Origin: Octopus vulgaris
Lineage: Eukaryota
DNA length: 64,000 bases
Reading direction: 5' to 3'
Assembly: GCA_951406725.2 (NCBI GenBank)
Contig: OX597833.1
Span: 68,696,001 to 68,760,000 of the forward strand
Each line of letters starts with the position of its first letter. The stretch's first letter is position 1. The notes beneath the pieces were generated by a model. That model worked only from the letters and a program-made list of their open reading frames with translations. It made no database searches and had not been told where the DNA came from. This document shows positions 19,410 to 60,277 of this stretch, piece by piece. Made by a program: the position numbers and the translations under genes.

Positions 19410-19411
<2 letters not shown>

Positions 19412-19630
19412 GGAGTAATATTTTTGAGCTCATCTTTGTTTATCGCTCGAAAATTGGCCGTTATTTCTAAAGGGTCAATCAAACAAGTCCATTTTTTCAA
19501 AGGTGTAGCGTTTGTAATAGTCTGGATAGAATTCACATATCGGCTCCATTCTAGTAAAAACTGTCCGACGAACGCAACGGGAAACTCGGAGTAACAGGTT
19601 TTGTTGAATTTTCTGCTGCTTTAAATAAAG
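19410..19630 (+). mobile_element. Family F element, single-arm variant with hammerhead-like motif
   Basis: Starts CCGGAGTAA like other F copies. Motif AAAACTGT-CCGACGA-acgcaacgg-GAAA-CTC g GAG-TA-ACAG at 19557-19602. Flanked by (TA)n on both sides. Confidence 0.7.
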
Positions 19631-26444: not shown

Positions 26445-27275
26445 GCGAAAGGTGGGGGTTGGAAAATAAGTATGCCGAAGCTTTCATAGGGGTTCTCCAA
26501 GGATCGGTGTTCAGCCCACTCTTGTTCATCATAGCCTTCCAAGGAATAATAGAGGAATTCAAGCCAGACTGTCCATGGGAGCTCCTCTATGCTGATGACC
26601 TTGTTTTTATATCCGAGATACAACCTGAACTAGCGAAGTAGTTCCAGGTATGGAAGGAAGGTCTAGAATCAATGGGCCTATTAGTTTACCTAGCAAAAAC
26701 TAAAGTTTTACTATGTAGGAAGGCAGACAAATCACAAATCTTTTCAGGTATCTGGCCGTACTCTATCAGGAGAAAGGGTGTTGTTAGAAACCCCATAAAA
26801 CGCACCTCGTGTAAACTTTGTACCAGTATCAGAGGAAGGTTAACAGGGAAACTAGTTTTTGTATGTGGAAGATGCACAGGTGAAATATATGCTGAAAATG
26901 GGCAGAAAATAGACTCCATCAAGCTAGGGGTAGTAAATAGCTTCCGTTGTGTAGTGGAGGTGGATGCTCCGAAACGTAGCTCTGAGAATAAGATTAGGCT
27001 AAGCAAAATTCAGAGACCTCCTTCCTCTGCTAGTAACAAAGGCCTCTCGCTCTGAGCGAAAGGCATATTGCTTGATGCCTGTCCGCAAACAGCTGTACTG
27101 CATGGCAGTGAAACATGGGCTATTACCATCGAGGACATGTGTAGACATGAAAGGAATGAAGTCAGTATGCTTCGCTGGATGTATAATGTCAGTGTGCATA
27201 TTCGACAGAATGTAAGCACCTGGAGAGAAAAGTTTAGGGATAAGAGGTATGAGATGACAGCGCTGGCATGGTCAT
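26445..27275 (+). pseudogene. RTE-clade LINE reverse transcriptase fragment
   Basis: Peptides GVLQGSVFSPLLF, PWELLYADDLV, GLLVYLAKTKVL, a Cys-rich insert (FVCGRCTG) and LHGSETW...ERNEVSMLRWM. Contains a stop at 26639-26641 and frameshifts. Confidence 0.9.
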
Positions 27276-35215: not shown

Positions 35216-35269
35216 TTCCTGTCAGCAAACGCATTACAAAATTGGTACGTAATTTATCGACACCGGTGG

Positions 35270-35744
35270 AACAACTCTCGAAAGAGTCCAGAAGCTGGCT
35301 ACCCGCATGGTTCTTGGTCTCAAGCATTTGTCTTATGAAGAAAGGCTGAAGACGCTCGACCTTTATTCTCTTGAAAAACGCCGCCGCCGTGGTGATCTCA
35401 TTCTCGCTCCCAACATCATAAGCGGAAAGTGTAACCTCTCGAAAGAGCTGTTCTTCACCCCTGCTCCAGAGCGTCGGCTGCGGGGTCATTCCGAAAAGCT
35501 CTATCTGCGACGATTTCATCTCAATCGAAGGAGAGGAGCTTTCTCCGTCCGGGTTGCGGATCCGTGGAATAAGCTGCCGGACGAGATGGTGAAGATGCCA
35601 CGACCGCTCGGTTCCAAGTCTCCCTTGACCACATGTGGCCTGAACTCTTTACATGAACACCACCCTGTACATAAATCCATGTCCTCCTACATGGCCTTGC
35701 TTTTTGCTTTTTGAGGCAAAAAATGAACTAACTAACTAACTAAC
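35270..35744 (+). pseudogene. 5'-truncated CR1-group LINE: ORF2 C-terminus, 3' UTR and (AACT)n tail
   Basis: LERVQKLATRMVLGLKHLSYEERLKTLDLYSLEKRRRRGDLI...RGHSEKL...FSVRVADPWNKLP, then the (AACT)n tail at 35726-35744. Confidence 0.9.
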
Positions 35745-36228: not shown

Positions 36229-36615
36229 TGGAAGCACTCCGTCGGTTACGACGACGAGGGTTCCGGTTGATCCGAATCAACGGAACAGCCTGCTCGTGAA
36301 ATTAGGGTGTAAGTGGCTGAGTACTCCACAGACACGTGTAGCCTTAACGTAGTTCTCGGGGATATTCAGCGTGACACAGAGAGTGACAAGGGCAGCCCTT
36401 TGAAATACAGGTACAACAGAAACAGGAAGTAAGAGTGTGAGAAAGTTGTGGTGAAAGAGTACAGCAGGGATCACCACCATCCCCTGCCGGAGCCTCGTGG
36501 GGCTTTTTAGGTGTTTTCGCTCAATAAACACTCACAACGCCCGGTCTAGGAATCGAAACCGCGATCCTATGACCGCGAGTCCGCTGCCCTAACCTCTGTG
36601 CCATTGCGCCTCCAC
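36229..36615 (-). mobile_element. tRNA-derived SINE, family C, full length, with 13-bp TSD
   Basis: Near-identical to 59345-59728 and 59895-60277. TSD TTGGAACGTAATG at 36213-36225 and 36616-36628. Inserted into a decayed D copy starting at about 36070. Confidence 0.9.
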
Positions 36616-37263: not shown

Positions 37264-37441
37264 ACATACACACTCACACACACACATATATATATATACA
37301 CTCACACACACACACACATATATATATACATATATACATATACACACACACATATATACATATACACATATATATAAATACACATACACACACACACATA
37401 TATATATATACACATATATATATAATACACATACACACACA

Positions 37442-37475
<34 letters not shown>

Positions 37476-37480
37476 CACAA

Positions 37481-37543
<63 letters not shown>

Positions 37544-37745
37544 CACATACACACATATATATATATACATATGTATACACGCGCACACATCCACAAACTC
37601 ACACAGGGTTTCTTTCAGTTTCCATTTAACAAATCAACGCACCTGGTTTCGGTCAGATCGATGCTATAGCTGAAGACACCTTCGCCTGGCGGAATGTGGT
37701 GAGTGTTTAACCTGCAACCACATAGTTCAGAATCAAACTACTTAT
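37095..37745 (-). mobile_element. Decayed SINE, family A, with expanded internal microsatellite
   Basis: 3' part GAACCGCTAAG...CACCGGTTATCAAG and 5' part TTCTTTCAGTTTCC...GCTATAGCTGAAGACAC flank about 390 bp of TA/CA repeat. Confidence 0.6.
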
Positions 37746-41220: not shown

Positions 41221-41222
<2 letters not shown>

Positions 41223-41368
41223 GGAGTAAACACATAAATGTGAAACAAGGTGGAAAAAAGAGTACTCAAATACCAGTGGTAGAGTAATATGCTTTATTTA
41301 AAGCAGCAGAAAATTCAACAAAACAAAATTCAGAGTAACACGTTTGTGTTGAATTTTCTGCTGCTTTA

Positions 41369-41373
<5 letters not shown>
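41221..41373. mobile_element. Family F foldback element with the hairpin centre deleted
   Basis: CCGGAGTAAACACATAAATGTG start. Arms TTTAAAGCAGCAGAAAATTCAACA and TGTTGAATTTTCTGCTGCTTTAAA remain, but the ribozyme-like cores are missing. (TA)n lies on both sides. Confidence 0.8.
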
Positions 41374-45410: not shown

Positions 45411-45412
<2 letters not shown>

Positions 45413-45643
45413 GGAGTAAGCACATAAATGTGAGACAAGAGTGCTCAAATGCCAGAGGTAGAGTAATATGCTTTAATTAAAAGCAGCAGAAATATAACAA
45501 AAGCTGTTACTTGAGTTTCACGTTCCAGTTCGTCGGACAGTTGTGTTAAAATAAAACCCTATTTTAACAAAACTGTCCGACGAACGGGAACGTGAAACTC
45601 CACGTAAAAGTTTTTGTTCTATTTCTGCTGCTTTTAAATAAAG
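45411..45643. mobile_element. Family F foldback element with hammerhead-like motifs on both arms
   Basis: Arms at about 45470-45552 and 45560-45643. Motifs CTGT-CCGACGA-ACGggaaCGT-GAAA-CTC on + (45571-45612) and a variant on - (45503-45542). Flanked by (TA)n. Confidence 0.8.
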
Positions 45644-51545: not shown

Positions 51546-51801
51546 CAGATTATTTCTATGCTAATAATTCTCAAAACAGGAACAATACAATGTTCATTCG
51601 AAATCATACTGACCATGTAACATGGTTGCTTCTTCTATAATCAATATTAGCTGGATTCTATCGACGATTTATTACTGAAGACACAACGTAGATTATGATC
51701 GACTATGTCGTAATTCCTTCTGATAAAATTCACAAAATTGCTAAGAAAAGGGGAGAACACATTGGATTTTTAATATATATATATATATATATATAATAAA
51801 G

Positions 51802-52029
51802 TTTATTCAAAAGCAGCAGAAAATTCAACAAAACCTGTTACTCTGAGTTTCACGTTCCCGTTCGTCAGACAGTTTTCACATAAAAACTGTCCGACGAATG
51901 GAAACGTGAAACTCAGAGTAACAGATTTTGTTGAATTTTCTGCTGCTTTTGAATAAAGCATATTACTCTACCACTGGTATTTGAGTACTCTTTTTTCCAC
52001 CTTGTTTCACATTTATGTGTTTACTCCGG
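51802..52029. mobile_element. Family F foldback element, best-preserved copy
   Basis: 75-bp inverted arms at 51802-51876 and 51883-51957 with a 6-nt loop, then a unique extension ending TACTCCGG at (TA)n. Confidence 0.85.
51831..51876 (-). ncRNA. Minimal type-I hammerhead ribozyme motif with canonical core
   Basis: Minus strand reads AAAACTGT-CTGACGA-ACG ggaa CGT-GAAA-CTC a GAG-TA-ACAGGTTT. All conserved core positions are present, with predicted cleavage after GUA. Confidence 0.7.
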
Positions 52030-52061
<32 letters not shown>

Positions 52062-53159: not shown

Positions 53160-53292
53160 AGGATATCCGCGAGATAGCACCATGCTGAAAATAGCAGTCA
53201 TGATCTGACTCTAAAACCACCTTAAGGTGATTTTATAGTCAGATCATGGCTGCTATTTTTAGCATGCTGGTATCTCGTAGATACCCCAATTT
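53155..53292. repeat. 138-bp spacerless imperfect palindrome
   Basis: Centre CACCTT|AAGGTG at 53223/53224. The 69-bp arms are complementary with scattered mismatches. Confidence 0.9.
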
Positions 53293-57759: not shown

Positions 57760-58000
57760 ATATATATAATTTCAACTAGAAAGAGCAACCAAACTCAAAC
57801 CGCTAAATAGTTGTAATTCTGAAATCAAAGGAGAAATAAAAACATTTACCCTTTGCATAGTCCAAAGATGATAAGGGTAAATGTTTTTATTTCTCCTTTG
57901 ATTTCAGAATTACAACTATTTAGCGGTTTGAGTTTGACTACTCTTTCTAGTGGGTCGAATGGCCTATCAGGGCCATTCCTTAATATTGTTGAAATTATAT
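57760..58000. repeat. Foldback element with 78-bp arms
   Basis: Arms at 57776-57853 and 57873-57950 with a 19-nt loop. Outer ATAATTTCAA/TTGAAATTAT pairing resumes after a 38-nt insert in the right arm. TA-rich flanks. Confidence 0.85.
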
Positions 58001-59344: not shown

Positions 59345-59728
59345 TGGAGGCGAAATGGCCCAGTGGTTAGGGCAGTGGACTCGCGGGCATAGGATTGCGG
59401 TTTCGATTCCCAGACCGGGCGTTGTGAGTGTTTATTGAGCGAAAACACATAAAGCTCCGGGAGGCTCCGGCAGGGGATTGTGGTGATCCCTACTGTACTC
59501 TTTCACCACAACTTTCTCTCACTCTTACTTCCTGTTTCTGTTGTACCTGTATTTCAAGGGGCCGGCCTTGTCACTCTCTGCGTCACGCTGAATATCCCCG
59601 AGAACTACGTTAAGGGTACACGTGTCTGTGGAGTGCTCAGCCACTTACACGTTAATTTCACGAGCAGGCTGTTCCGTTGATTCGGATCAACCGGAACCCA
59701 CATCGTCGTAACCGACGGAATGCTTCCA
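59345..59728 (+). mobile_element. SINE family C, full length
   Basis: A-box TGGCCCAGTGG, B-box GGTTTCGATTCC, and structured 3' end GTTGATTCGGATCAAC...GCTTCCA. Flanked by a duplication of about 90 bp. Confidence 0.9.
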
Positions 59729-59894
59729 TACATGTGTATGTGTGTGACTATGTGAGTGTGTGGAAATGTGTGTGACTGTGTGTGTGTGTGTGTATTGTGC
59801 GTGAGTGTGTGTGTGTGTGTATACGATGAGTTTCAATAGTTTTCCTCTCCTGAAACCTCTCACAATTCCTCGGACAGCCCTAGGCTGTAGTGGG

Positions 59895-60277
59895 TGGAAG
59901 CACTCCGTCGGTTACGACGACGAGGGTTCCGGTTGATCCGAATCAACGGAACAGCCTGCTCGTGAAATTAACGTGTAAGTGGCCGAGTACACCACAGACA
60001 CGTGTACCCTTAACGTAGTTCTTGGGGATATTCAGCGTGACGCAGAGAGTGACAAGGCCGGCCCTTTGAAATACAGGTACAACAGAAACAGGAAGTAAGA
60101 GTGAGAGAAAGTGTGGTGAAAGAGTACAGCAGGGATCACCACCATCCCTGCCGGAGCCTCGTGGAGCTTTAGGTGTTTTCGCACAATAAACACTCACAAC
60201 GCCCGGTCTGGGAATCGAAACCGCGACCCTACGACCGCGAGTCCACTGCCCTAACCACTGGGCCATTGCGCCTCCAC
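59895..60277 (-). mobile_element. SINE family C, full length
   Basis: Reverse complement of the preceding copy. TSD-like CTAGG(C/T)TGTAGT at 59880-59891 and 60279-60290. Confidence 0.9.

Follow-up and report, generated by a model that had tools for sequence, protein, structure and literature searches.

A foldback at positions 51802-52029 of the window (the whole 64,000-nucleotide stretch of Octopus vulgaris DNA that we analysed) carries hammerhead ribozyme motifs back to back on both strands, which raises the question whether such hairpins spread as units of their own or are left behind by a larger element. The head-to-head repeat was confirmed: its arms (51802-51876 and 51883-51957) are identical at 71 of 75 positions and are separated by 6 nt, with (TA)n on both flanks (Table 1). 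A generic scan of the 64-kb window for type-I hammerheads returned three motifs (51891 on the plus strand, 51868 and 45536 on the minus strand), where 0.1 would be expected by chance (mean of 30 order-3 Markov simulations). The hammerhead family was absent among the 150 of 238 Rfam matches listed for the window. The preliminary description had placed a minimal type-I hammerhead with a palindromic stem III in each 75-bp arm, and the scan recovered stems I and III and both cores as claimed. The stem II that it gave (ACG-ggaa-CGT) does not hold for the plus arm, which reads ATG/CGT with a GAAA loop, and the right arm actually runs on for another 72 nt.

Table 1. Features of the foldback and of related copies in the window; offsets are relative to the predicted cut.
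Feature	Position	Strand	Remarks
(TA)n target microsatellite, left	51773..51796		
Short-end arm, truncated pLTR copy	51802..51876	-	Ends 3' at the fixed short site (AATAAAG, +37 from predicted cut) and stops 5' at about -38
Minimal type-I hammerhead motif	51835..51872	-	Core CUGACGA; predicted cut after 51839
Head-to-head junction spacer	51877..51882		Unique in the genome
Long-end arm, truncated pLTR copy	51883..52030	+	Terminates at the fixed long end (+109)
72-nt tail of the long-end arm	51959..52030	+	Reaches the CCGG end
Minimal type-I hammerhead motif	51887..51924	+	Core CCGACGA (variant with C4); cut predicted after 51920
(TA)n target microsatellite, right	52030..52044		
Copy of the same family	19410..19630	+	Inverted long end of 9 nt plus short-end arm of 212 nt extending into the 3' UTR
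Copy of the same family	41221..41373		Long-end arm (-) and short-end arm (+); both end before the hammerhead core
Copy of an older subfamily	45411..45643		Long-end arm (-), short-end arm (+); damage in both motifs

The copies at 19410, 41221 and 45411, previously pointed out as related, are indeed relatives of the foldback, each lying in (TA)n and each starting with CCGGAGTAA, but their hammerheads are lost or damaged: the core is not retained at 41221, and the copy at 19410 has one motif with a stem II that is 1 nt short, its arms sharing no overlap. The 19410 copy provided the link from the foldbacks to a coding sequence. Walking upstream from it, we passed through a 1-kb 3' UTR and reached the open reading frame (ORF) of a reverse transcriptase (RT)-endonuclease element of the Hydra clade, so that the proposed Penelope-like origin was borne out. 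This kinship of the arms to an RT-endonuclease element speaks against a separate non-autonomous family. Elsewhere in the window, positions 37439-37567 matched the TA-rich 3' UTR of the Hydra-type element weakly (69%, E 2e-6), possibly through low complexity.

In the 2.8-Gb genome, a degenerate hammerhead pattern gave 5,955 exact matches and a 19-nt anchor downstream of the cut gave 9,746, with none for either reversed control. An open frame of 727 codons was present at 43 of 150 scored places (from 11,017 candidates; counted by eye), and 14 of 16 loci picked for this frame held an intact 711-aa ORF, with a mean difference of 8 of 2,136 nt. Most intact ORFs at these 16 chosen loci were flanked by hammerhead-bearing direct repeats, and the distance from hammerhead to hammerhead was 3,357 nt (locus L084); the unit exceeds 3 kb here because of the 1-kb 3' UTR. 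The family has pLTR direct repeats with a hammerhead, an inverted 5' copy and an optional tail, and it inserts into (TA)n. Contigs from sequencing runs, of a kind that we could only guess, cover the ORF. One very young subfamily (L084-L099, on several contigs), with many near-identical intact 711-aa ORFs and insertions that are often long head-to-head or partial-tandem, has probably been active recently.

Read by eye, the 711-aa protein has the motifs RWK, DKT, YRDD, CxCX5C, GVVY...YTG, CxxC and CxH and no CCHH; in a by-eye comparison with section 11 of PMC8557442 and with published proteins, these motifs read as the signature of the Hydra clade. Of 7,996 scored candidates, 1,071 were homologs at E <= 1e-20. 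An AlphaFold model of the protein (pLDDT 93) had TERT as its top Foldseek match (E 2.5e-9), and a single-sequence structure prediction was uninformative (pLDDT 33). A Pfam scan of the ORF, whole and in pieces, returned no family, a PDB sequence search with it returned nothing significant, and no endonuclease was among the fold matches listed for the model. A linked ORF with RT and GIY-YIG domains had been suggested as a check: the RT ORF is there, but its GIY-YIG part is a candidate only, a GVVY...YTG motif after a linker in an ORF without a Pfam hit, with one homolog that does have a GIY-YIG Pfam hit.

Insertions were mapped against a naturally occurring tandem copy, using the first 100 exact anchors of a single contig (C1), a sample biased to young copies. 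Ends up to +60 were classed as short and those from +100 as long; values near -228 are alignment breaks in TA-rich sequence and not real ends. The arms had their 3' ends at two sites 72 nt apart, at about +37 (directly after AATAAAG) and at +109. A long-end arm was joined to a short-end arm in 34 of 35 head-to-head pairs, with no long-long and no short-short pairs and one ambiguous pair, and at least 12 of 30 unpaired anchors had a shorter inverted arm that was also of the opposite end kind. In the 31 close pairs, the arm reaching furthest upstream was the short one in 11 and the long one in 8, and the reach was equal in 12. Subfamily letters were common to both arms in 17 of 20 pairs (shuffled mean 7.3, maximum 12). 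At five loci (L019, L024, L046, L106 and L165), insertions of different subfamilies lay within a few hundred bases of one another, suggesting that the same (TA)n tracts are used repeatedly.

The 5' stops of the arms clustered upstream of the hammerhead. Thirty-three of the 100 arms, or 33 of the 56 that reached -42, stopped between -48 and -42, a stop rate of 0.084 per nt compared with 0.004 to 0.021 elsewhere, and 14 of these 33 stopped at the modal position, -44. Judged by eye, similar stops occur in the oldest subfamily. The furthest edge of the zone (-47), which lies 13 nt before stem I, coincides with the A of what we take to be an initiator-like motif (YYANWYY). An extra G preceded this A in 13 of the 31 arms ending there (background 19%), as copying of a cap would give, in a count that is biased by our sorting rule and in which several of these G's could come from the opposite arm. 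Sequencing runs of four organisms also gave contigs with loose ends at about -47. Among 15 upstream repeats running into the ORF, 2 stopped before the hammerhead, none stopped in the zone, 2 stopped at about -53 and -55, and 11 continued past -90; correspondingly, the 13 pLTRs upstream in long copies, two of which share one insertion, gave 0 stops in the zone, with the stops at about -53 and -55 in two of the 13 lying close to it. Two other origins of the hot spot were rejected. Cleavage by the hammerhead does not set the template's 5' end, since only 1 of 100 arms ended within -2 to +3 of the predicted cut; nor is a splice acceptor (TAG at -41) responsible, since the stops include preceding bases and 1 of 100 arms ended at -40, and the oldest subfamilies are without that AG.

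It is probable that the foldback at 51802-52029 is one insertion, consisting of two opposed, 5'-truncated copies of the hammerhead-bearing end of the autonomous Hydra-clade element and likely made by two-end priming in (TA)n at two fixed RNA sites. The endonuclease would cut both (TA)n strands, and each DNA end would prime reverse transcription at one of the two sites on the element RNA; each arm is then, with the same probability, a separate cDNA, and the two cDNA 3' ends would have been joined head to head through microhomology or a few added bases. Such two-end priming agrees with in vitro work on the Poseidon element of Anolis as described in PMC11167929; that work (Frangieh et al. 2024) gives no biochemical basis for the strict long-short rule, as the two strands did not differ in start site. 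Self-priming fold-back, proposed for rotifer Penelope elements (PMC3846280), would have one cDNA or antisense template fold at a palindrome and copy itself into the inverted arm. Palindromes (CTAG, stem III) do underlie many junctions, the two arms match in reach to within 3 nt in 12 of 31 close pairs, and they share their subfamily letters, yet we consider this route unlikely. Either arm may be the longer one, which argues against it: a copied-back arm must lie within the first arm, so that fold-back is contradicted for asymmetric pairs, such as the 11 of 31 in which the short-end arm reaches further than the long-end arm, sole holder of the tail; and the arms of the 19410 copy do not overlap at all. 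As to the hot spot, there is about an even chance that it marks the 5' end of an mRNA that is not cleaved and begins a short way upstream of the hammerhead. Short foldbacks would then be run-off products, and long copies would come from a template lacking that end, either tandem read-through RNA or a circle formed through two hammerheads of one transcript acting as a dimer. Two-ended priming could also be correct with the stops between -48 and -42 reflecting a pause or joining preference on a uniform template, a reading of appreciable though lesser probability. CTAG or TTAA palindromes lie inside the zone in several subfamilies (the CTAG of younger subfamilies overlaps the hot spot and could itself attract junctions), and the modal stop is at -44; however, asymmetric pairs and single arms bordered by (TA)n likewise have stops at -43 to -47, long copies run through this site once more with no stop in 13 of 13 cases, and the extra G before -47 is, weakly, at odds with a mere pause. 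Tentatively, and with rather less confidence than in a 5' end at the hot spot, the foldbacks may be read as fossils that record how Penelope elements are copied: a dimeric RT would copy one RNA from a pair of fixed sites, each serving one DNA end, uncleaved mRNA beginning 13 nt before the hammerhead would yield short hairpins only, and cleavage by a hammerhead dimer with circularisation would supply the full-length template.

The preliminary description had favoured a non-autonomous family of Penelope-like or retrozyme type whose transcripts would form a cleavage cassette, self-inhibiting or switchable; such a family would propagate as one unit and be retained for that cassette. Whichever strand is transcribed, the RNA does, as it stated, carry a ribozyme behind its own antisense copy; copies number in the thousands, and both motifs are complete in 14 of 31 close pairs. 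At least one motif is lost in the other 17, however, the junction of the window occurs once in the genome, and the 31 close pairs have 27 junction signatures, those that recur lying on the CTAG palindrome in different subfamilies. Retrozymes are head-to-tail tandem, non-coding and spread as a unit; here the arms are head to head, the junctions are unique, an ORF is linked, and no tandem monomers were seen. Folding speaks against a switch as well. The full foldback gives, on either strand, a very stable hairpin of 75 bp (-121 and -131 kcal/mol) that buries both motifs and against which no other fold is a stable competitor, and the ribozymes are therefore predicted to be silent rather than switchable. 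Energy minimisation of single arms did not yield the hammerhead fold and was no better than for shuffles (z -0.38 to 0.77); the stem III palindrome paired between two molecules in silico (-8.0 kcal/mol). A host read-through transcript of the foldback would accordingly be expected as double-stranded RNA with both ribozymes off. A family of cassettes is thus largely refuted and in our judgement very improbable, and the foldback is the expected footprint of Penelope-like elements.

The ribozymes themselves differ among subfamilies. The type-I core (C3 U4 G5 A6 N7 G8 A9, G12 A13 A14, A15.1-U16.1 and H17) is complete in the minus arm and in the youngest subfamily, and C4 replaces U4 in the plus arm, in 2,199 of the 5,955 exact matches and in 42 of 46 of the oldest set. 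U4 together with the stem II base of the older subfamilies was found in 134 matches, the minus arm of the window among them, as CpG decay of the C4 core would give. The letters of this core, previously called canonical, were read correctly, but its U4 is likely a CpG mutation, given the 134 U4 against 2,199 C4 matches in older subfamilies. In the youngest subfamily, whose ORF is intact, U4 goes with a stem II of 2 bp that has an A on each side (by subtraction, at most 3,622 matches). The C4 core also marks the oldest subfamily found (L223-L252), in which the pair closing stem I has G on its 3' side and either C or U as the partner. Among the stem I pairs, one alternates among U-A, U-G and C-G, and where G was on the 3' side, its partner was C in 13, U in 32 and A in 1 of 46.

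Stem covariation and conservation of the core had been proposed as checks. Although 95.6% of cells were paired, only this one stem I pair covaried, with a score inside the shuffle range (27 of 500). Among copies, the core had 1 change in 403 positions versus 8 in 527 for the flanks in older subfamilies, and 2 in 406 versus 4 in 569 in young ones, and was not clearly better kept; nor, when old subfamilies were compared with young ones, had the hammerhead changed less than the sequence on either side (6 of 38 versus 5 of 34 and 6 of 71). The six hammerhead changes between subfamilies fell at position 4, position 7, loop II, 11.1, loop III and a stem I base that still pairs, evidence that is partly circular because the search pattern fixed the core. 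As covariation, core conservation and divergence were not decisive, self-cleavage at GUA is presumed from kinship with known hammerheads. The U4C change is a known natural variant, described as lowering activity in vitro and viable in a viroid (PMC3088659), and hammerheads of metazoan Penelope-like elements are described as cutting weakly, as dimers or aided by protein (PMC11167929, PMC4209133).

The kind of element, the hammerhead form, the inverted 5' copy and the optional tail are already published. For the Hydra clade, Craig et al. (2021, PMC8557442) describe a single ORF with RWK, DKT, CxCX5C, CxxC and CxH, (TA)n targets and a hammerhead near the 3' end, and the octopus family shares these ORF motifs, targets and 3'-end hammerhead. 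In their data, Hydra-2_aMil has a stem I and an ACTC-N-GAGT stem III identical to those of the octopus family, and for Penelope-13_HM a hammerhead is listed on both strands owing to an inverted 5' copy. The octopus ORF is collinear by eye with that of Hydra-1_Obim, but the proteins are clearly different, and we regard the two families as separate because Hydra-1_Obim has another hammerhead (PMC8557442). Compared with the Hydra clade as presented there, the octopus unit is longer (about 3.36 kb versus a tendency to <3 kb, which is not diagnostic), as is its tail (72 nt versus 30-40); its stem II has 2-3 bp, and its older subfamilies have C4, whereas all Hydra rows of File S2 have U4. The minimal hammerheads of Cervera and de la Pena (2014, PMC4209133) are similar in being type I with a short stem I, a palindromic stem III and a proposed dimer; the octopus motifs differ from them in a shorter stem II, the lack of a G10.1-C11.1 pair and the C4 variant. 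The same paper describes dual minimal hammerheads in Schistosoma, 100-700 bp apart on opposite strands. Metazoan non-LTR retrozymes (PMC7229834, bioRxiv 10.64898/2026.07.22.740005) are likewise short and non-coding, with a type-I hammerhead and a link to PLE pLTRs, but are built of head-to-tail tandem monomers, whereas the octopus foldbacks derive by truncation from a coding element and have their arms head to head. In the in vitro account of Anolis Poseidon (Frangieh et al. 2024, PMC11167929), the tail is set by a pair of RT start sites lying downstream of the hammerhead, both strands of AT-rich target DNA are cut and extended, and uncleaved RNA is the main substrate, cleavage being dispensable for insertion. 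Start sites had no strand preference in that account, and the text consulted does not report strict long-short pairing or an upstream stop hot spot.

Recently active Penelope-like families in an octopus genome have been mentioned, in the text of PMC13282606, without clade or ribozyme detail. The octopus family, the strict long-short rule and the stop hot spot were not found in the literature searched (Repbase/Dfam and the supplements of PMC4209133, PMC11167929 and PMC13282606 lay outside the search), and our searches found no biochemical study of the Hydra clade. The origin of inverted ends, tails and partial tandems in Penelope-like elements and the role of the hammerhead are named as open questions (PMC8557442, PMC11167929). 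The value of the family lies in offering a test system for both: its insertions number in the thousands and follow a strict long-short rule, their 5' stops cluster sharply upstream of the ribozyme, the core occurs naturally with C4 and with U4, and young copies have intact ORFs. Should the foldbacks indeed record the copying cycle in this way, the youngest subfamily, with its intact ORFs and its switch from C4 to U4, would provide a natural experiment on what the ribozyme does in transposition.

The window holds further repeats. A near-perfect, MITE-like hairpin of about 120 nt (53166-53285) adjoins a microsatellite and has no kinship to the hammerhead family, and another near-perfect hairpin, AT-rich and about 115 nt long, lies at 57806-57920. 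Units of the GAGTTCATATAT type form a tandem array inside a TA microsatellite at 1880-2290. Short frames at 35253-35714 and 26642-27055 resemble what we take to be decayed C-termini of LINE reverse transcriptases. A dispersed repeat of about 290 nt occurs at 59442-60112 and 36229-36515, with two copies forming an inverted pair 166 nt apart.
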